A stretch of 64,000 nucleotides of DNA from contig CAWJGT010000003.1 in NCBI GenBank assembly GCA_963842525.1, forward strand, positions 160,001-224,000, in the 5' to 3' direction. Positions within the stretch are counted from its first letter, which is position 1. Each line of letters opens with the position of its first letter. The notes beneath the pieces are model-generated. The model was given only the letters and a program-made list of their open reading frames with translations. It was not told where the DNA came from and ran no database searches. The position numbers and the translations under genes were made by a program. The DNA is from an uncultured Holophagales bacterium (GTDB lineage: Bacteria > Acidobacteriota > Thermoanaerobaculia > Multivoradales > UBA5704). This document shows positions 2,872 to 56,517 of the stretch, piece by piece.

Positions 2872-3681
2872 GTGAAGGGCCAACGTCTGCGAAGGGAGGA
2901 CCCCGTGAGGACGGAACCCATCCGCAATTTCTCGAACGCCTTCCGGACCGATCCCTGGGAGGACCCCGATCGGTATGGAACCGGCGACCCATGCGGCCCC
3001 GGTCCGGCCGGAGACGCCGGAAGGTACCGCGACCGCGCGTCCTGGAACGACGTGGTCTCGCGCGGCGTCGAGCTCGGTTATCAGGTGATCGAGGACCAGA
3101 TCCGCCAGGGCCAGCGCGTGGCTCGCGACCTGAACGATCGGCCGTACGACGTCGGCCGGATGAGCGACGACCTCTGGGAGGTCACGGAGAGGAGCTTCCG
3201 TTACTACTCGGAGGCGACCAATCTCTGGATGCAGTTCCTGACCGGCATGTCCTGGATGGGGGGCCCCGGGATGGGCGGCCCCTGGACGAGGCCGTGGGGC
3301 AGGCCTGGGGACAGACGGCGCCCCGAGGAGGCTGCGTCTGCGCCATCCCCGGCCGAGAGCGGCTGGCGCCGGGTGGCCGTCGCGTTCGAGGTGGACTCTC
3401 TCCGCCCGGTGAGCGTGGAGCTCGACCTGCATACGCCCGGCGACGTCGCCCTCCCCCTGGCCGCGGTCGGGCTGCAATCGCTGGAGGGGCACACGGCGTT
3501 GACGGAGATCACGTTCGAGCCCGGCGTCGTCCGCGAGGGGGTCCGCCTGCGGCTGCGCATTCCGGACGACCAGCCGGCCGGCTTCTACACCGGCGTGGTC
3601 TTCGACCAGCGCACAGGACAGTCACAGGGCACGCTGTCGGTGCGCGTGTCCGAGCGGGTCGAGCGGGTCGAGCGGGACTAG
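2872..3681 (+). CDS. Hypothetical protein in the operon (helical N-terminal part, beta-rich C-terminal part)
   Basis: AGGAGG RBS upstream of GTG; 12 bp from the upstream gene and 4 bp from the downstream gene. Confidence 0.7.
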   Translation: MKGQRLRREDPVRTEPIRNFSNAFRTDPWEDPDRYGTGDPCGPGPAGDAGRYRDRASWNDVVSRGVELGYQVIEDQIRQGQRVARDLNDRPYDVGRMSDDLWEVTERSFRYYSEATNLWMQFLTGMSWMGGPGMGGPWTRPWGRPGDRRRPEEAASAPSPAESGWRRVAVAFEVDSLRPVSVELDLHTPGDVALPLAAVGLQSLEGHTALTEITFEPGVVREGVRLRLRIPDDQPAGFYTGVVFDQRTGQSQGTLSVRVSERVERVERD

Positions 3682-3685
3682 GGCG

Positions 3686-4735
3686 ATGGCTGCCGCGGAT
3701 CTGCCGAAGCTGGTCCCGGAGGTCTTGCGGGAGTACAGCGAGATCACCCGCGAGGCGCTGCGGGAATACCTGCCGTCGCGGGAGCCGCGGCGCCACCTCT
3801 ACGACCTGCTGCCCGACTACCCGCTGCGCGGCGGCAAGGGGATGCGCCCGAGCCTCTGCATCGCCACGGCGCGCGCTTTCGGGGGCCGGCTCGAGGACGC
3901 CCTCGGCACGGCGGTGGCCATCGAGCTGCTCCACAACGCCCTGTTGATCCACGACGACATCGAGGACGAGAGCGAGGAGCGCCGCGGCAAGCCGACGCTG
4001 CACATGCTCCACGGCATCCCGCTCGCGCTGAACGTCGGCGACATGCTGACCCTGCTGAGTCTGCGTCCGCTGATCGAGAACCGGGCGCGGATCGGCCCGC
4101 GGCTCGCCATGCAGGTGATCGAGGAGACCGAGCGCATGGCGCAGGAGTCGGCCGAAGGGCAGGCCATGGAGCTGGGCTGGCGCCGCGACAACACCCTGGG
4201 CGTCGACGACTCCGACTACCTGCTGATGGTCCTCAAGAAGACCTGCTGGCTGGCGTCGATCCACCCCTGCCGGGTGGGCGCGCTCCTCGGCACCCACGGC
4301 GGCCTTTGCGGCAACGACCTCGAGCCGTTCCTCCGTTTCGGCTTTTTCCTCGGCGCCGCCTTCCAGATCCACGACGATCTGCTCAACCTGGTGGGCGATC
4401 CCGGGAAATTCGGCAAGGAGCTCGGCGGCGACCTGTGGGAAGGCAAGCGGACGCTGATGCTGATCCACCTCTACCGCGAAGCCGCGCCCGCCGAGAAGGA
4501 CCGCATCTCCGAGCTCCTGGGCCTGCCGCGGGAGCAGAAGAGGGCCGCCGACATCGCCTGGATGCGCCGGCGGATGGACGACTACGGCTGCATCGAATAT
4601 GCGCGGCACATCGCTCACGGACTGGCCGGCGCCGCGCTCCACGAGTTCTCCCTCCTCTATGGAGGACTACCCGACTCGCGGGACAAACGGTTCATCGAAG
4701 GCATGGTGACCTGGGTCTTCGAGCGGGAATCGTGA
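3686..4735 (+). CDS. Polyprenyl diphosphate synthase (trans-IPPS family)
   Basis: GGKGMRP, FARM HDDIED followed by RRGKPT, GQAMEL, KT, FQIHDDLLN (SARM variant), DLWEGKRT. Confidence 0.92.
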   Translation: MAAADLPKLVPEVLREYSEITREALREYLPSREPRRHLYDLLPDYPLRGGKGMRPSLCIATARAFGGRLEDALGTAVAIELLHNALLIHDDIEDESEERRGKPTLHMLHGIPLALNVGDMLTLLSLRPLIENRARIGPRLAMQVIEETERMAQESAEGQAMELGWRRDNTLGVDDSDYLLMVLKKTCWLASIHPCRVGALLGTHGGLCGNDLEPFLRFGFFLGAAFQIHDDLLNLVGDPGKFGKELGGDLWEGKRTLMLIHLYREAAPAEKDRISELLGLPREQKRAADIAWMRRRMDDYGCIEYARHIAHGLAGAALHEFSLLYGGLPDSRDKRFIEGMVTWVFERES

Positions 4736-19667: not shown

Positions 19668-20879
19668 ATGATGGCACGAGCGTTGGCCGCCACCCTGCAG
19701 ATCACCTTCCTGGCTCTCCTCGCCGGGCCGGCTGGCGCTGCGCCGCCTCCGGTGCCACGAGGCGCCGAGATCCGTGTCAACACCGACACGCAGGTCTCTC
19801 ACTTCAACCCCTCCGTCGCCGTCTTCCCGGACAGCCGCTTCGTGGTCGTCTGGTCGGCGACCTCCGGAGCGCGGGCGCGGTTTTTCGACAGCCAGGGAAG
19901 ACCGACGAGCGGCGAGCGCCGCCTCGCGGTCAGCGGGATCGTCGATCAGGTCGTCGCGGACCGTGACGGCAGCTTCCTCGTGGTCTGGAGTGGGGGCACG
20001 GGCCCCGCGCTTGGCGTCTACGTACGCCGCTTCAACCGAGACGGCATGCCGCGGGGCAAGGCGATCCGCGCCAACGCGCCCAGCACATCCAGCCGGTTTG
20101 ACGCCGTGGCCGCCATCGGACCGGATGGCCGCTTCGCAGTCGCCTGGAAAGCGCAGGTCGACGTGTCCGAGGAGAGCGGCTATACCAACGCCGTGGCGCG
20201 GATCTTCACCGCCAAGGGGACCCCCGTCACGCCGGAGATCCTCCTTCTCGAAGGCGATGCCGCCGGCGCTGCCGGAGACGACGCCATCGACGCCTATCCG
20301 ACCAGCCTGGCCCTGACACCCGACGGCACCCTGGCGGCGCTGGTCCAGTCCTTTGAGTCGAGCGGCTGTCTCAATAGCTACCTGATACGGGTGCCTTCGG
20401 CGGGTGGGTCCCTCAGCTCGCAAGCTCTGGGCTCGATCCTCTGCGCGCCGGACTATTTCGGCTCGTCTCTGGCCATGGGACTGGATGGCAGCCTGGTCGC
20501 CACCTGGAGCGACTTCTCGATTCGGGCCCAGCGATTCTCTCCGGACGGAACCCCCCGGGGCCAGTACTTTGGGGTCAGCACCGGGCAAGATGGTCAGACC
20601 GACGCGGCGGTCGCTCTGCAGGCCGGCGGGAGCTTCGTCGTCGCCTGGGCCGAGCCGTTCGGGCGGGACGGGGACGGCAGCGGCATCTTCGGCCGCGCCT
20701 TTGCTCCCAATGGAGCACCGCGCACGCAGGACTTCCGGATCAACGTCACGACGGCCGGCAACCAGCACGATCCGGCGATCGCCGCGGCCCGTCAAGGTCC
20801 TGTCCTGGTCGTCTGGACCCAACTGACTCCGGATGGCCGGAGCGACGTCTTCGCGCGCGTGCTCTCGGCGAAGCCATAG
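19668..20879 (+). CDS. Secreted beta-repeat (propeller-like) protein
   Basis: Signal peptide; repeated (E/D)xRVN-T...PxVA...GxFVVxW...ARxF units; TGCTAGAAT 6 nt before the ATG. Confidence 0.8.
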   Translation: MMARALAATLQITFLALLAGPAGAAPPPVPRGAEIRVNTDTQVSHFNPSVAVFPDSRFVVVWSATSGARARFFDSQGRPTSGERRLAVSGIVDQVVADRDGSFLVVWSGGTGPALGVYVRRFNRDGMPRGKAIRANAPSTSSRFDAVAAIGPDGRFAVAWKAQVDVSEESGYTNAVARIFTAKGTPVTPEILLLEGDAAGAAGDDAIDAYPTSLALTPDGTLAALVQSFESSGCLNSYLIRVPSAGGSLSSQALGSILCAPDYFGSSLAMGLDGSLVATWSDFSIRAQRFSPDGTPRGQYFGVSTGQDGQTDAAVALQAGGSFVVAWAEPFGRDGDGSGIFGRAFAPNGAPRTQDFRINVTTAGNQHDPAIAAARQGPVLVVWTQLTPDGRSDVFARVLSAKP

Positions 20880-20971
20880 CCGAGCGGCGCCGCACCCACC
20901 GCGCGGGCTCGCCGCGCAGCCTCACAGCATGCACGAAGGATCCGGCCAGCTATGCCGCGCAAGCCGATCCG

Positions 20972-21362
20972 CCGTGGATAACGATATCCGGCGCAGATAA
21001 GCTTATCCGAGCCAGTGTAAGCTTATCCGCCGATCAGATAAGCTTATCCGCCGTGGATAACACTATCCGGCGCGGATAAGCTTATCCACCGCGGATAACA
21101 CTATCTGGCGCAGATAAGCTTATCCGTGGCAGATAAGCTTATCCGGCGTGGATAACGGTATCCGGCGCAGATAAGCTTATCCGCCACGGATAACACTATC
21201 TGGCGTGGATAAGCTTATCTGGGCCAGTGTAAGCTTATCTGGCGCAGATAAGCTTATCTGCCGTGGATAACACTATCCGGCGCGAACTAAGCTTATCCGT
21301 GGCAGATACATTTATCCGACATGGATTACGGTATCCGGCGCGGATGGCGTGATCCGGGCCGG
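20972..21362. repeat. Tandem array of ~20 units with ~19-bp period: 12-bp palindromic core GATAAGCTTATC (variant GATAACACTATC) plus 7-bp GC-rich linkers
   Basis: Read directly, e.g. GATAAGCTTATC-CGGCGTG-GATAACGGTATC-CGGCGCA; the last units decay. Confidence 0.95.
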
Positions 21363-21407
21363 CTCAAGCAGATCTGTCGCAGATATCAGCATCCCACTCA
21401 TCTCGCC

Positions 21408-21520
21408 AGCCGGCGATTTAGCTCCTCTTTACAGCTACAGGAGTTTGACGCGAGAGGAGGCGTGGAAAGGGCCCGTGCACGCCGATCCCTGCGGCAGGGC
21501 GAGTGCAGCGAGGGTTAGGC
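21408..21520 (-). mobile_element. Degenerate integron attC-like site closing cassette 2
   Basis: Minus strand starts GCCTAAC-CCTCGCTGCAC (R''/L''); the right end is decayed (GGAGCTAAATCG). Confidence 0.5.
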
Positions 21521-21545
21521 GGCCAGTCACGAGCATAGGAGAAGG

Positions 21546-21902
21546 TCAGTCGATAGCTTCGAGGATGGCGTCCATCGGCAGACGGACAGCAGTAAGCAGC
21601 CAGGCGCAAAGTGCGAACGCACAAAGAATAGTCCCGCCAGACACCAGGACAGCGTAGAGAAGGGATGGTCGAGACCTTTTGAGGATGTCGATTGCAAGGA
21701 TGGCGAAGGGTGCCAACAGGAGCCACCACCACTTGTAGGTTGCGACGAAGAACCGGGTGAGCGTAGGGAGTGGCGCGGCGAGCCCGGTTAGAAGTTTGTC
21801 AAAGTCGGGGGCATACCAATATGTGAAACCGAGAACGAAGAGAAGAGACAGGAATGCGGCCGCGAGAAGGGCCGAGGCGACGATCCTGTGTGGCTGGCTC
21901 AT
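21546..21902 (-). CDS. Small three-TM membrane protein (cassette 2 ORF)
   Basis: MSQPHRIVASALLAAAFLSLLFVLGFTYW...LPTLTRFF...; the ORF-track start at 21944 is probably too far upstream. Confidence 0.65.
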   Translation of the reverse strand: MSQPHRIVASALLAAAFLSLLFVLGFTYWYAPDFDKLLTGLAAPLPTLTRFFVATYKWWWLLLAPFAILAIDILKRSRPSLLYAVLVSGGTILCAFALCAWLLTAVRLPMDAILEAID

Positions 21903-21959
21903 AGCAGTGCGCTCTCGGTCCGCAATAACGTCACGTGGGGGCACGATTGATCCCTGGCC

Positions 21960-22033
21960 GCCTTACGCGCAGATGGTGAGCGGCGGGAACCACGCTGTTT
22001 GCGGTTTCCGTCCGCTCGACCGTGGGGTTATGC
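21960..22033 (-). mobile_element. Integron attC-like recombination site closing the TIR cassette
   Basis: Minus strand GCATAAC-CCCAC-GGTCGAGCGG...central hairpin...CCGCTCACC-ATCTGCGC-GTAAGGC: R'', L''/L' with one unpaired base, R' with one mismatch. Confidence 0.72.
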
Positions 22034-22038
22034 GTCCC

Positions 22039-23034
22039 CTACTTGGTTGGCTCGTTCGGTTCTTCGGATTCATCGTCTACTGCACCCCTCAGCCGGCGCC
22101 CCTCGTACCTGTGCAGCAAGTGATCGAGCATCATTGGAAGCTCCATCATCATCATGTGCGCTTCTTTCGAGGAACCGCCGAACTCTTCCATAAAAGGGCC
22201 ACGGCTAACATATTTGACAACCCGCCGCAGGCGCTCGATCGCTCTCTGCGCTGCCTTGGGATCGCCGTCCTTGACATCACGATAAGCCTCCATGATGATC
22301 TCATAGAGCCAAGGATAGTCGTCTCGCAGAAGGCCACCGAACATGAGCAATGCAACAGGATCCTCTCCGTCTTCAGACATCATATGTGCCATTTCGTCGA
22401 ACATCATAGGATGAAACCTTCGACGGCGGCGTGATCGCGGAGCCTGTTCGGAAACTATACCCTCAAGATCGCGAAAACGCGAGTCGAGGCCCCGCACACT
22501 AGTAACAAGCTCTTCAAGGATCTCGTGATGAGGCCGCATATGTCTTTCAGTCGGGGCTTCCTTCGGAATGCCAGCCAACCGCTTTTCAAGCTCCGGCCAC
22601 AAAGCGGCGAATAACTGTTTAACGCGGTCGTCGGGAATCGCTTGGTCCGTGGCATGGTTTATCGACTGAACCACCTCGCCCAGTCCGCTCCTTTCGACTT
22701 TTTTGGCTTGAAACTGCGCAAGTGGTCCCGTAATGTCACTGAACTCAAGATTGAAGAGAAGAGGAATGACCTTGGCACCCTGCATCGACTTCGCAAGGGC
22801 TCCGGCCTCAAACAACACCCAAGGCGAACCGACGTTCTCCGGAGTCACACATATTACTCCAAAGTTCGATGCTTCCAACTCTTTTGCCACAGCTTGTGCC
22901 CAGCGGTCTCCGGCAGACACATCCGCCTCAGAGAGCCAAGGCTCCACATAATGGAGTACGAGCGGGAACCACTCCCGTAATGCCTGCGCGAGCGCTTGGC
23001 TACGCTCTCCGCTCCAACTAATGAATAGCTTCAT
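22039..23034 (-). CDS. TIR-domain protein (TIR_2-like N-terminus plus helical C-terminus); integron cassette cargo
   Basis: MKLFISWSG...AGDRW...SPWVLFEAGAL with the conserved Glu; visibly more AT-rich than its flanks. Confidence 0.9.
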   Translation of the reverse strand: MKLFISWSGERSQALAQALREWFPLVLHYVEPWLSEADVSAGDRWAQAVAKELEASNFGVICVTPENVGSPWVLFEAGALAKSMQGAKVIPLLFNLEFSDITGPLAQFQAKKVERSGLGEVVQSINHATDQAIPDDRVKQLFAALWPELEKRLAGIPKEAPTERHMRPHHEILEELVTSVRGLDSRFRDLEGIVSEQAPRSRRRRRFHPMMFDEMAHMMSEDGEDPVALLMFGGLLRDDYPWLYEIIMEAYRDVKDGDPKAAQRAIERLRRVVKYVSRGPFMEEFGGSSKEAHMMMMELPMMLDHLLHRYEGRRLRGAVDDESEEPNEPTK

Positions 23035-24510: not shown

Positions 24511-24614
24511 GAGGCACTGTAAGTAGCAGGGCGGTCCCTCCGCTCCGTGGTGGGGCGGGGGAGAGAGCCGCCTCGAAGGCGGTGCCTCATGATGGCACCG
24601 CTGGATGTCGTGCC
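24511..24614. repeat. ~105-bp element, copy 1
   Basis: GAGGCACTGTAAG...GCCGCCTCGAAG..GGTGCCTCATGATG.CACCGCTGGATG; near-identical to 25283-25385. Confidence 0.85.
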
Positions 24615-25282: not shown

Positions 25283-25385
25283 GAGGCACTGTAAGAGGCA
25301 GGAGGCGGTCCCTTCGCTCCGTGGGGCGGGGGAGAGGGCCGCCTCGAAGAAGGTGCCTCATGATGCGCACCGCTGGATGCCGTGC
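25283..25385. repeat. ~105-bp element, copy 2
   Basis: Direct repeat of 24511-24614. Confidence 0.85.
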
Positions 25386-29586: not shown

Positions 29587-29695
29587 CCGCCCGGGCATGA
29601 ATGCCCGGGCTAGGAACAGCGCCGGGTAAACCCGGCTTCAAAGCCCCATTCATGGGGCGCCATTCCTAGCCCGGCGATTCATCGCCGGGCGGGGC
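29587..29695. repeat. REP/REPIN-like palindrome cluster between convergent genes
   Basis: CCCGGGCATGAATGCCCGGG, GCCGGGTAAACCCGGC, GCCCCATTCATGGGGC, CCCGGCGATTCATCGCCGGG. Confidence 0.75.
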
Positions 29696-38384: not shown

Positions 38385-39152
38385 GTGGAGTTTCGGAGGG
38401 CCTGGGACGCCCGCGGGCTCGGCGGGGAGGCGCGAGCCTGGGTGGATCGCTGCCGCGAGGCCCTCGAAGACCGGGACGGCCAGCCGCCGGACTTCGAGAC
38501 GCCGGCTGGTGCGCTGTGGTTGTTCATGGTGGTATCCCAAGCCAATCGATCTCTTCAGGCTGGTGCTTTGGCGGAGGCCGAAGCGGAGTACGACGCGATC
38601 CGGCTAACGCTCGAGAAATCCAGCAGCGAGCAGGCAAAGAGGCGCCTCGCCGTGGCCTACCATCAGCTCGGGAGGGTGGCCGAGGATCATGGAGATCTGC
38701 CGGGAGACGAGTCGTGGTACCGCAAGTCACTGGAGATCACAGAGGCGCTGGGGGATCAGCCTGCGATGTCTATGTCCTACCATCAACTCGGGAGCGTGGC
38801 CGAGGCTCGCGGGGATCTTGAGGGAGCCGAGTCGTGGTACCGCAAGTCCCTGGAGATCGAAGAGTCGCTGGGGGATCGACCCGGTATGGCCTTCACCTAT
38901 GGGCAACTCGGCCTTCTGGCGCTAGCCCGTGGGGACACGACAGGAGCCCTGGACTGGACGGTCCGTTGCGTGGCCCTGTTCCCCGAGTTCCCCCACCCGG
39001 CGACAGGCCCGGGGCCCCACAACCTCGCCCGACTCACGGCCAACTTAGGCATGCCGGCCCTCGAAGCGAGCTGGCAGCGCTGCACGGGCGGACCGTTGCC
39101 CGAGCCGGTATGGGCGTGGGTGGCGGCGCGATTGGAGAAAAGTTCCGCCTGA
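38385..39152 (+). pseudogene. C-terminal TPR fragment of a larger NTPase/TPR-type protein (5'-truncated)
   Basis: YHQLGxVAExRGDL..AESWYRKSLEI TPRs; begins abruptly with no RBS. Confidence 0.6.
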
Positions 39153-54800: not shown

Positions 54801-56517
54801 GCAGGGGCCTTCCGGCCTCGGGATCGACATGGTGGGCCTCATCGGGCTCATCGGCGCGGGCGGCGGCAGCGGCGACAACCTCCTCAACACGCTGGTCGAC
54901 GACGACCAGCCGTTCGACGCCGCGCACGACATGATCGCGGCACCGAACGCCGGCAACGCACCCGGTTTTGACGGGCCGTGGGTGCCGGAATACAACTCGC
55001 CGTCGTGGCCGGCCGTCGTCGGTCTTGCGGGCGATCCGACCGGCAACCTGACGTACTTCGACGGCCTCAGCACGCAGGGAGACTGGAGCGCGCTCGCCGC
55101 GGACGAGTTCGGTGGCGACATCGGTACCCTCAACGCCTGGTCGATCCTCGTCACCCCGGTCCATTTTGTCTGCTCACCGTTCCTGGGAGGGGTGGCCGAC
55201 GTCTCCGCGACCAAGACGGTGACCGGCACCTTCACGGTCGGCGGCACGGTGACGTATACCGTGACGCTCACCAACGACGGCACGGCAGCTCAGGGTGACA
55301 ACCCGGGCGACGAGCTCACCGACCTCCTGCCGGCCAGCCTGACGCTGGTCAGCGCCGTGGCCACCAGCGGCACGGCGGGGACTGCGGGCAACACGGTCAC
55401 CTGGAACGGCACGATCGCACCTCTCGGCGGCACGGTCACCATCACGATCACCGCCACGATCAACGCCGGGACCCAGTGCACCTCGATCACCAACCAGGGC
55501 ACCGCGTCCTTCGACAGCGACAATGACGGTACGAACGACACCGCTGTTCCCACCGACGACCCCGGCGTGGTCGGCACGGCCGATCCCACGGTCTTCACGG
55601 TCCAGTGTGCGGCCGTCACGGCGACCAAGACCGTGAGCGGCACGTTCACAGTCGGCAGCAACATCACCTACACCATCATCCTTTCAAACTCGGGCTCCGG
55701 CGCCACTCTCGACAACGCCGGCGACGAGCTCACCGACATCCTGCCGGCCAGCCTGACGCTGGTCAGCGCCGTGGCCACCAGCGGCACTGCGGGGACCGCG
55801 GGGAACACCGTCACCTGGAACGGCAGCATCCCGGCCGCCGGCAGCGTGACCATCACCATCACCGCCACCATCAACGCCGGTACCGGGTGCACCACGATCT
55901 CCAACCAGGCGACGATCGCCTTCGATGCCGACCTGAACGGCACCAACGAGTCGGCGGGCGTCAGCGACGACCCCTCGGTCGGAGGCGCCAACGACCCGAC
56001 GACCTTCGAGGTCCAGTGCGTGGACCTCGAGGCCACCAAGACCGTGACCGGCACTTTCGAGCCCGGTGGCATCGTGACCTACACGATCGTGATCGAGAAC
56101 AACGGCAACGCGACCGCGACGGGTGTGGTATTCACCGACGACCTGCCTGCCGGCGTGACCCTGGGACCGGGCGTCCCCACGTCCACGATCGCTCCGCAAC
56201 CCACCAACACCGACCCTGTCACCTGGACCGGCGACATTCCGGCCGGCGGCAGCGTGACCATCACCATCCAGGCCACGATCGACGATGACGCTTCGGGTAC
56301 GATCAGCAACCAGGGAAGCGTCGCCTTCGACAGCGACCTCAGCGGCACCAACGACACGACGATCGATACCGACGACCCGGTTCCCCCCGGTAGCGACGAT
56401 CCGACCGCGTTCGTCGTCGGCGGCACGGTCGCGATTCCGACGGCCTCTGAGTACGGCCTGCTGCTGCTCGGGCTCGGCCTGCTGCTCGCCGCCTGGAGCG
56501 TAATGCGCCGCGCATGA
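51849..56517 (+). CDS. Secreted M36 (fungalysin) metallopeptidase with P-domain, three DUF11-like repeats and an IPTL-CTERM-like anchor; frameshifts near 52495, 53045 and 54567
   Basis: AGGAGG plus GTG; LGFDEAAGNFQ, IHELTHG (HExxH), GMGEGWSDF, GIRRFPYS, EVHNAGE; ATKTVxG..TYTI repeats; IPTASEYGLLLLGLGLLLAAWSVMRRA. Confidence 0.88.

Follow-up and report, generated by a model that had tools for sequence, protein, structure and literature searches.

An array of about 20 short palindromic units lies near 21 kb in a window of 64,000 nucleotides from an uncultured Holophagales bacterium, and it raises the question of what such DNA does: bind a protein, move, fold or merely persist. The window is the stretch G000:C3:160001-224000, where G000 denotes the source genome, a 9.95-Mb assembly of 34 contigs. 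An original prediction, made from the window alone, proposed a multimeric binding platform for a dimeric protein, centromere-like or iteron-like, or else a multi-hairpin element. The former is still the best reading, as judged from the linkage of such arrays to a gene and from a homodimer model of the gene product. The window array is interpreted here as the orphaned DNA half of a two-part cassette, the other half being the gene of a small protein termed ORF130, and the array as a phased protein-binding platform; a probability of about 0.45 is assigned to this interpretation. The sequence patterns and protein models that favor it are: (i) the linkage of gene and array, (ii) a constrained repeat period, (iii) the co-divergence of gene and array, (iv) the conservation and modeled dimerization of the protein, and (v) the palindromic unit and the position of the array.

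The window array and its cassette family

The array occupies two adjoining segments:

20967..21345, no strand assigned: tandem array core, a 12-bp palindrome (GATAAGCTTATC) and its variants with 7-bp GC-rich linkers, period 19
21346..21440, no strand assigned: decaying units, to about 21393, and a short trailer in which GGCGATTTAGC is the sole motif in common with an intact cassette copy on contig C7

The 12 bp of the GATAAGCTTATC core unit form a perfect palindrome. When as many as 2 mismatches are allowed, the window holds 11 matches, of which 8 are exact; all lie inside 20996-21297, and none of 100 shuffles reaches 11 (mean 0.29, maximum 3). Tandem Repeats Finder (TRF) calls period 19 at 20985-21308 (16.8 copies, score 251) and period 57 at 20967-21345 (6.6 copies, score 321), with periods 38 and 77 as well. 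An in-register parse finds 18 units with at least 9/12 core matches at 20977-21316, flanked on both sides by degenerate units that extend from 20958 to about 21393. The 22 spacings are 19 bp (17 cases), 20 bp (four) and 21 bp (one). Each linker is one of a small degenerate set of GC-rich 7-bp words (YGSCGYR type); together with the CCAGTGTAAGC variant units, the linkers set the polarity of the array. The predicted array of some 20 palindromic units, with GATAAC(AC/GG/GA)TATC variants interleaved with GC-rich linkers, is thus real. It is also non-coding as proposed, being closed in all six frames, and AT-rich in a GC-rich genome (GC 0.51, compared to about 0.675). Of a proposed duplication of about 11 units, a part holds: the TGTAAGCTTATC variant occurs at 21016 and 21228, 212 bp apart, and about five consecutive units match in order at this offset, but TRF calls no period near 211 bp. 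The view that the array fits neither clustered regularly interspaced short palindromic repeats (CRISPR) nor repetitive extragenic palindromes (REP) and their mosaic elements (BIME) is shared here. CRISPR arrays have repeats of 23-50 bp with unique spacers of similar length, as opposed to 12-bp cores and 7-bp linkers, and the exact cores of G000 cluster in about 18 arrays rather than being scattered singly or in small clusters as in REP/BIME.

GATAAGCTTATC occurs 72 times in G000, and its reversed control does not occur. The sites form about 18 clusters, which blastn groups into a family of 17 arrays; 23 isolated loose matches are mostly other sequences. With the repeats masked, nine arrays are alike over about 300-700 bp on the left, and four to five over about 120 bp on the right. 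The left flank encodes a small open reading frame (ORF) of 124-137 aa, ORF130 (e.g., C25:136998-137372 and C7:143647-144045), and a GC-rich hairpin follows it. About half of the GATAAGCTTATC arrays of G000 sit downstream of ORF130 and the hairpin; in roughly half, ORF130 is absent or present only as fragments. The duplicated unit comprises gene and array together with about 300 bp upstream and the trailer, from about 750-950 bp left to about 120-130 bp right of the array, and in one subfamily its copies are 88-92% identical at unrelated loci, with discrete common boundaries. The intact cassette consists of an ORF130 of about 125-140 aa, the GC-rich hairpin, a leader of about 100-250 bp, an array of 250-700 bp and a trailer of about 120 bp. 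Alignment of the left ends reveals two short hairpins, a conserved TTGACA hexamer, a 5' leader, GGAG and ATG; the promoter-like and terminator-like elements are defined by alignment only. Array units follow one another at intervals of 19-21 bp, or roughly two B-DNA turns, and a super-period of two or three units is frequent.

Other repeated elements occur in and around the cassettes. An insertion sequence (IS)-like element that ends in TGTAGACGCCCGCCTTATTTCGTGACC and carries a 225-aa ORF is present in about nine near-identical copies (99.5% protein identity), at G000:C9:107213-107973 and eight other places, one of them inside a GATAAGCTTATC-type array. A hairpin-bearing insert of about 130-170 bp (GAGCGCCTAACAAAACCGGCCTAACGGGCC...) lies between the ORF130 stop and the hairpin at C25:137375-137545 and recurs, 94.5% identical, past the array of a different cassette at C7:144608-144730. 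The insert is probably a small miniature inverted-repeat transposable element. The trailer end TGTAGACCCGT... was considered as an IS end and rejected, as the IS-like TGTAGACGCCCGCC... is a separate multi-copy element and the trailer motif is found in four cassettes only. A second protein family, ORF200 (about 200 aa), lies beside two subtype arrays; only 2 of its 20 paralogs are near an array, and its placement is probably coincidental.

The original prediction called for a search of the core motif across the genome and its relatives and named a unique, unconserved array as the mark of a neutral minisatellite. The family is instead dispersed in G000 and recurs in a second genus. Of 40 relatives of G000, two have multi-site GATAAGCTTATC arrays, namely the congener G005 (11 sites) and G018 of another genus (30 sites), and four more have a single site. 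In G018, the C-terminus of ORF130 is followed by the hairpin and an array with super-periods of 63 bp and 104 bp, whose GATAAGCTTATC core is as in G000.

The window copy differs from intact copies on its left side, where two features are found:

20905..20966, + strand: leader remnant of a cassette, from a pairwise alignment to the leader of the intact copy at G000:C7:36987-37150
19668..20879, + strand: left neighboring gene, not part of the element, 403 aa, no known family, ending 88 bp before the array

In the intact C7 copy, the aligned leader sits between the post-gene hairpin and the array. About 75 bp before the window array align to this leader, from just past the position of the C7 hairpin, and upstream of the remnant is the end of the unrelated 403-aa gene, which occupies the position where intact copies have ORF130. 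No ORF130 homolog was detected by tblastn in C3:160-224 kb. Judged by these alignments, the window array is a gene-less copy of the cassette that has lost ORF130 and the hairpin and kept about 75 bp of leader. G005 has an ortholog of the left-hand gene (72-74% identical), but neither flank is conserved and no empty site can be defined.

Gene-array linkage and the ORF130 protein

Three rounds of profile search identify 42 ORF130 paralogs in G000. By TRF, an array lies within 1 kb downstream of 25 of the 42, and any repeat lies upstream of five; the arrays are on one side only of the gene. Most paralogs have the GC hairpin behind the gene, often with a T run, and then the tandem array, while the unit sequence differs from paralog to paralog (e.g., GCAAGCTTCCCTGG, CCAAATTTTCTGG and GTTTTCCGAC). 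A set of 52 loci from other genomes, with one genome per species and about 30 metagenome-assembled genomes (MAGs) of Thermoanaerobaculia, Holophagales or unclassified Acidobacteriota, displays the same arrangement: 36 of the 49 loci that could be evaluated have an array of at least 100 bp no more than 1.1 kb downstream, and an upstream array is seen at 2 of 50. Despite unrelated units, the best autocorrelation period is 19-21 bp, or two to three times this value, in all 57 gene-linked arrays. Fourteen of these arrays contain AAGCTT at least five times.

Gene and array diverge together. When array pairs are scored as related if at least 10% of their repeated 9-mers are in common, the related fraction falls with the identity of the adjacent proteins, where several pairs counted as of different source come from one MAG and not all are independent:

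Protein identity of at least 80%: 17 of 18 pairs with common 9-mers
Protein identity 70-80%: 15 of 41 pairs
Protein identity 60-70%: 14 of 184 pairs
Protein identity 50-60%: 11 of 369 pairs
Protein identity 40-50%: 8 of 451 pairs

ORF130 has at least 660 database relatives, all unnamed or annotated as hypothetical, free of Pfam domains and mostly on contigs of 1-2 kb, a length that would be expected if short-read assemblies break at the arrays. Among 1.84 billion cluster representatives (50% identity clusters), a profile search returns 995 proteins at E ≤ 1e-3 and 397 at 1e-10, nearly all of 100-160 aa. A protein atlas returned only unnamed Acidobacteriota clusters. Among longer proteins, two matches carry no Pfam domain, and no fused form is informative. 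An alignment of 35 homologs defines a conserved core of about 105 residues and a proline-rich tail. The invariant residues include A56, K58, Q59, Y87, G88, P101 and R103, and F102, G104 and R105 are near-invariant.

The AlphaFold2 model of ORF130 has three long helices (6-23, 28-52 and 58-87; mean pLDDT 73) and a disordered tail. A homodimer is modeled with an ipSAE of 0.60 (0.60, 0.60 and 0.62 in separate runs; best control 0.00). Of proteins whose solved structures are pairs, 20 of 30 score this high, compared to 1 of 23 whose solved structures are single chains. The dimer runs agree in at least 94% of contacts, with a partner pLDDT of at least 84. This model supports self-association of ORF130 but is not proof of it. 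Known families were also compared. ORF130 has no match to PF05635 at E ≤ 1, none to the Rep families of Pfam, and none in the Protein Data Bank by Foldseek at E ≤ 0.001. Silencers of the H-NS/Lsr2 type combine N-terminal oligomerizing helices with a C-terminal DNA-binding module that has a Q/RGR minor-groove hook. ORF130 has a helical core with a dimer model, and its R103, G104 and R105 are in a segment of low model confidence; the match to the Pfam Histone_HNS_N profile (E 0.065) is below the cut-off.

The island edge, the proposed mechanism and its rivals

The window copy lies between core DNA and a low-GC island. To its left, GC is 67-74% and the genes look ordinary, encoding an FAD oxidoreductase, a polyprenyl synthetase, Hsp70- and DnaJ-like proteins and a Ser/Thr kinase with TPR repeats. 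To its right, GC drops to 55-64% over about 6 kb, and the following features border the array:

21444..21527, + strand: weak attC-like site, ending in GGTTAGGCG; covariance model E 0.32 with filters off
21546..21944, − strand: small ORF between the two attC-like sites, 132 aa, no family
21954..22040, + strand: attC-like site with R boxes GCCTTAC / GTTATGC, an unpaired spacer, a long imperfect stem and a bulged T on the 3' arm
22039..23034, − strand: TIR-domain gene (PF13676, 5e-11; PADLOC TIR-TM PDLC03016, 2.4e-64)

The attC sites of integrons are imperfect palindromes with R'' (RYYYAAC) and R' (GTTRRRY) boxes, an unpaired spacer and one or more extrahelical bases. By sequence, the site at 21954-22040 corresponds to this textbook anatomy. 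It scores 85 bits (E 3e-21) in a covariance model whose training set includes this sequence. Its 65-bp segment at 21965-22029 recurs in several regions downstream of cassettes, and the consensus fold of eight aligned copies has 20 pairs, R-box pairing, the bulged T and a center of variable length, with complementary GCCnAAC and GTTnGGC boxes. The + strand of the site resembles the bottom strand of attC, since the bulge is on the 3' arm; cassettes would then read towards the array, in agreement with the predicted position at the distal end of a cassette array. The stop codon of the TIR gene abuts the site, and the gene is a candidate defense cassette that would read towards the array in a putative attC cluster with no integrase. 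The 132-aa ORF is a candidate for the last cassette, and 21444-21527 is possibly, on suggestive evidence only, a last and degraded attC beside the array. The predicted position holds for the right side, with its attC-like sites, TIR-TM gene and low-GC island, but not for the left, where ordinary core genes are found. The window array is a decayed family member that borders a defense-gene-bearing island.

The association extends to other cassettes of G000. At E < 1e-3, the covariance model places attC-like sites downstream of 7 of 20 cassette loci in addition to the window; most of these are training sequences, and the new ones are L077:3373, L077:4286 and L069:3322. A sequence profile finds 19 attC-like sites in G000. 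Of the 50 arrays that are strictly non-coding, seven have such a site no more than 5 kb away; 500 random placements give 0.82 on average and 5 at most. The orientation of the site with respect to the cassette is constant in seven of eight downstream cases (seven loci and the window orphan), and a minus-strand ORF stops a few bases from the site in both cases inspected. In the other genomes, the attC model finds one strong site (L025) in 58 loci; thus, the link to integrons holds only for G000. No integrase domain was found at 16-32 kb of the window and no intact intI in G000, where a remnant at C9:1070932-1071162 lies about 650 bp downstream of an array of 21-bp period. In G018 (L006, about 3050-4376), an ORF130 cassette array directly abuts a 5'-truncated intI. 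The integrase genes of G000 (in the region C9:1069876-1071162, which includes the array) and G018 both lack the first 100 or so codons and start at an identical residue (..LPxVL(S/T)R(D/E)EV..). Averaged over 20 cassettes, GC amounts to 0.66-0.68 on the upstream side and to 0.61-0.63 in the 2.5 kb or so that follow the array. The 96 downstream ORFs of these cassettes mostly have no family; the others include a PIN domain, a YhgA-like transposase, a group II intron reverse transcriptase, an IS200-like protein, DUF5677, DUF6886 and CHAT.

Several further repeats were noted in the window. Two direct repeats of about 105 bp (24511-24613 and 25283-25385) consist of 93-95% identical blocks spaced 771 bp apart. 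Both overlap ORF starts on the + strand; the ORFs are small, and the second encodes a FitA-like ribbon-helix-helix antitoxin and is followed by a PIN (VapC-type) gene. The repeats resemble duplicated 5' regions of two small modules. At 29587-29692, just past the low-GC island, is an inverted repeat of 52 nt (2-nt gap, 75% complementary). A 120-bp tandem repeat of about two copies (38656-38911) and a 411-bp tandem repeat of 1.8 copies with 79% matches (55297-56058) are probably coding parts of large genes. Of the sampled window words, a fraction of 0.08 is present in one soil DNA run, and no RNA run is listed with them.

In the proposed mechanism, the three-helix protein encoded by a cassette would dock on the array as dimers, one per unit and all on one face of the helix. 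The invariant basic QPFRGR(K) segment would possibly make the contact with DNA, and the perfect 12-bp palindrome suits a dimer. The bound dimers would build an extended nucleoprotein filament or solenoid, as in centromere and iteron arrays. The window array could be bound in trans, since eight close paralogs are encoded elsewhere in G000. As the arrays tend to edge low-GC DNA, several stretches of which are integron-type cassette arrays, a function as a boundary, insulator or site of silencing nucleation would be likelier than one in segregation. A wider scheme, in which each chromosome has dozens of orthogonal protein-satellite pairs, every paralog coats its own rapidly co-evolving array, and the coated blocks mark the edges of foreign low-GC islands, integron cassette arrays among them, and insulate these edges or nucleate silencing there, is rather unlikely.

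A number of findings weigh against binding of the arrays by ORF130. The support for DNA contact consists of sequence patterns and protein-only models. The QPFRGR(K) motif is in a segment modeled as disordered with low confidence. ORF130 has nothing above threshold in Pfam, NCBIfam, PHROGs or PADLOC; the matches listed by a wide VIA-align search are all generic three-helix bundles (best Z 9.5), and the model has no recognizable DNA-binding fold. A consensus scan of one intact copy calls neither the promoter nor a terminator at the post-gene hairpin. Proteins of about 60% identity have unrelated arrays, and the G018 protein beside GATAAGCTTATC arrays is only 41-50% identical to the G000 proteins whose arrays have the identical core; thus, simple one-to-one recognition is not evident. 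Dyad symmetry is not general: of 58 gene-linked arrays, it is clear in only 16. The mean identity of the arrays to their own reverse complement is 0.52 (0.44 and 0.41 in two controls), and for the window array it is 0.47 (0.34 and 0.40). No array is found at 17 of the 42 paralogs. Finally, arrays of this period class are distributed more widely than ORF130, which weakens the gene as an explanation of all of them. Of 235 TRF arrays of at least 150 bp in G000, 196 have a best period in the 19-21 class (x1 to x3), with 63 inside longer ORFs and 133 not embedded. The latter form 34 families (of 25, 18, 17, 8, 8, 7, 7 and fewer members); an ORF130 faces the array within 700 bp in 18 of the 133 and is missing in 115, and no ORF130 is near the two largest families, whose units are 63 bp (25 copies) and 62 bp (18 copies).

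The non-embedded arrays include C14:50422-50798 and C11:141987-142415, and a three-unit super-period (57-63 bp) is very common among the arrays of G000. TPR-regulator-like ORFs of about 440 aa (e.g., C9:689001-690314) face 12 arrays; the median distance from their 3' ends to the array is 43 bp.

The breadth of the period class is also among the points in favor of a neutral minisatellite, in which slippage and unequal crossover generate arrays of no function and the link to ORF130 results from co-duplication or from a slippage-prone sequence after the gene. Most of the 34 non-embedded families have no ORF130, units are homogenized within an array and decay at both ends, sequence turnover between paralogs is fast, and orphans persist. 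This account is nonetheless unlikely, as neutral repeats would not be expected to have one period class across unrelated units in about 30 genomes or to lie so predominantly on the downstream side (36 of 49 loci, compared to 2 of 50 upstream), nor would arrays of 250-700 bp be expected to be kept beside a gene that has diverged to 40-60% identity. Doubtful, yet compatible with a binding platform rather than a replacement for it, is a selfish or mobilizable cassette in which the array, leader or trailer serves as the cis site for copying or recombining the gene-plus-array unit. The recombinase would be encoded elsewhere, or the array would be a secondary site for the integron integrase; ORF130 would be an accessory protein and the orphans decayed insertions. 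The discrete boundaries of near-identical copies at unrelated loci are consistent with such mobility, as are the patchy distribution among relatives (multi-site arrays in only two of 40), the commonness of orphan and truncated copies, the adjacency of arrays to attC-like sites, group II intron reverse transcriptase and IS elements, and the nearness of an array to a 5'-truncated integron-integrase gene in two genomes (abutting in G018, about 650 bp upstream in G000). By contrast, no terminal inverted repeats or target duplications are found in the boundary alignments, the unit holds no transposase or recombinase, and mobility leaves the two-turn period of 57 of 57 arrays unexplained.

Two other accounts take up parts of the original prediction. 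In one, the array would act as structured nucleic acid, with hairpins in a transcript or single-stranded DNA or with cruciforms, e.g., as a stack of terminators, a scaffold RNA or a signal for replication or recombination. The folding energy of the + strand is -201.8 kcal/mol, compared to a shuffle mean of -119.4 (z = -15.3, with 0 of 100 shuffles as good), and long imperfect inverted repeats span the array. A single strand would fold strongly, but the fold is one of long-range arms that pair the array halves, not of a hairpin chain, and is expected of any palindromic tandem repeat. As clear dyad symmetry is confined to 16 of 58 sister arrays, the array lies beyond the hairpin that follows the gene, and Rfam has no credible match at 19-28 kb of the window, this account is very improbable. 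In the other, the array would be a DnaA titration site or an origin-related cluster. The six 8/9 matches to TTATNCACA that had drawn attention to DnaA are present in the array; none is perfect, and the window total of 8 (4.3 expected) is reached by 5 of 100 shuffles. The dnaA genes are on contigs C5 and C25, away from C3:181 kb, about 17 such arrays are dispersed in G000, the units of sister arrays in the cassette family bear no likeness to a DnaA box, and the proposed check of GC skew finds no switch at the array, which makes a role in DnaA binding hardly credible.

If ORF130 does bind the arrays, it would represent a large unnamed family of cis-arrays paired with binding proteins that are chromosomal rather than plasmid-borne, occur in dozens of diverged versions per genome and have strict two-turn spacing. 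Such pairs would provide a natural set of orthogonal DNA-protein addresses and a handle on how the large genomes of soil bacteria fence off integron cassettes and acquired DNA. Were the wider scheme of orthogonal pairs true, orphan arrays would be served in trans by paralogs, and the system would be the bacterial equivalent of satellite DNA and its dedicated binding proteins; to our knowledge, no chromatin boundary element of this kind is known in bacteria. The cassette is widespread in soil Acidobacteria and apparently undescribed: a literature search that included the integrons of Thermoanaerobaculia, with subscription journals outside its scope, found no description of the ORF130-array family.

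Comparison with known systems

The iterons of theta plasmids (e.g., P1 incA and F incC) are located downstream of a rep gene and serve as a platform for titration and handcuffing. The cassettes resemble them in that repeats of 19-22 bp in helical phase adjoin the gene of the presumed binding protein. The direct repeats of 17-22 bp typical of iterons are found in the window (19 bp) and in all 57 sister arrays (19-21 bp or multiples). By contrast, the cassettes have no winged-helix initiator of the Rep type by Pfam, no origin features and no perfect DnaA boxes, and they are chromosomal and multi-copy (about 40 copies) with arrays several-fold longer. The family of repeats at oriP of Epstein-Barr virus (EBV), which is bound by EBNA1, is a platform for maintenance, tethering and enhancer activity. 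It likewise has about 20 imperfect tandem units with a palindromic dimer site, an analogy of architecture only, while the virus is eukaryotic, the unit is 30 bp and the protein is unrelated.

REP/BIME elements (PMC3733652) are similar to the GATAAGCTTATC units in being short GC-flanked palindromes that are dispersed, intergenic and present in many copies. The GATAAGCTTATC units differ in that they are found almost only in long head-to-tail arrays of strict period and are linked to one gene. No link to RAYT turned up in scans that were not aimed at RAYT.

The closest likenesses are to plasmid centromeres. Their repeats lie beside the gene of the binding protein, as do the arrays at 36 of 49 loci and 25 of 42 paralogs; at the window, the gene is missing. 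Centromere-binding proteins have a ParB helix-turn-helix or ribbon-helix-helix fold, and the fold matches listed for ORF130 are generic helical bundles, with no Pfam or NCBIfam family. No ParA, ParM or TubZ partner was found in the duplicated unit or among the 96 downstream ORFs of the 20 cassettes. The parC repeat of plasmid pSK41 is 20 bp long. The ParR-centromere complex of this plasmid is superhelical (PMC3074162). ParR is a ribbon-helix-helix protein that works with ParM, whereas ORF130 is modeled as an all-helical three-helix protein with no adjacent NTPase, and parC has far fewer repeats than the ORF130 arrays. Short tandem repeats of about two turns are a likeness of the two systems, and the cooperative binding of dimers into a superhelical scaffold is proposed for ORF130 by analogy.

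In sopC of the F plasmid, 12 direct repeats of 43 bp each carry a 16-bp inverted repeat bound by SopB (PMC3177203). In comparison, ORF130 has no Pfam match that would mark it as a ParB/SopB protein, its duplicated unit encodes no ParA-type ATPase, about 40 paralogous cassettes are present per chromosome rather than one per replicon, and the arrays have a period of 19-21 bp with units that are hypervariable between paralogs. What the ORF130 cassettes would have in common with sopC, by analogy, is a series of a dozen or so, or more, tandem palindrome-bearing units, phased by whole helical turns, directly downstream of the gene for a small DNA-organizing protein.

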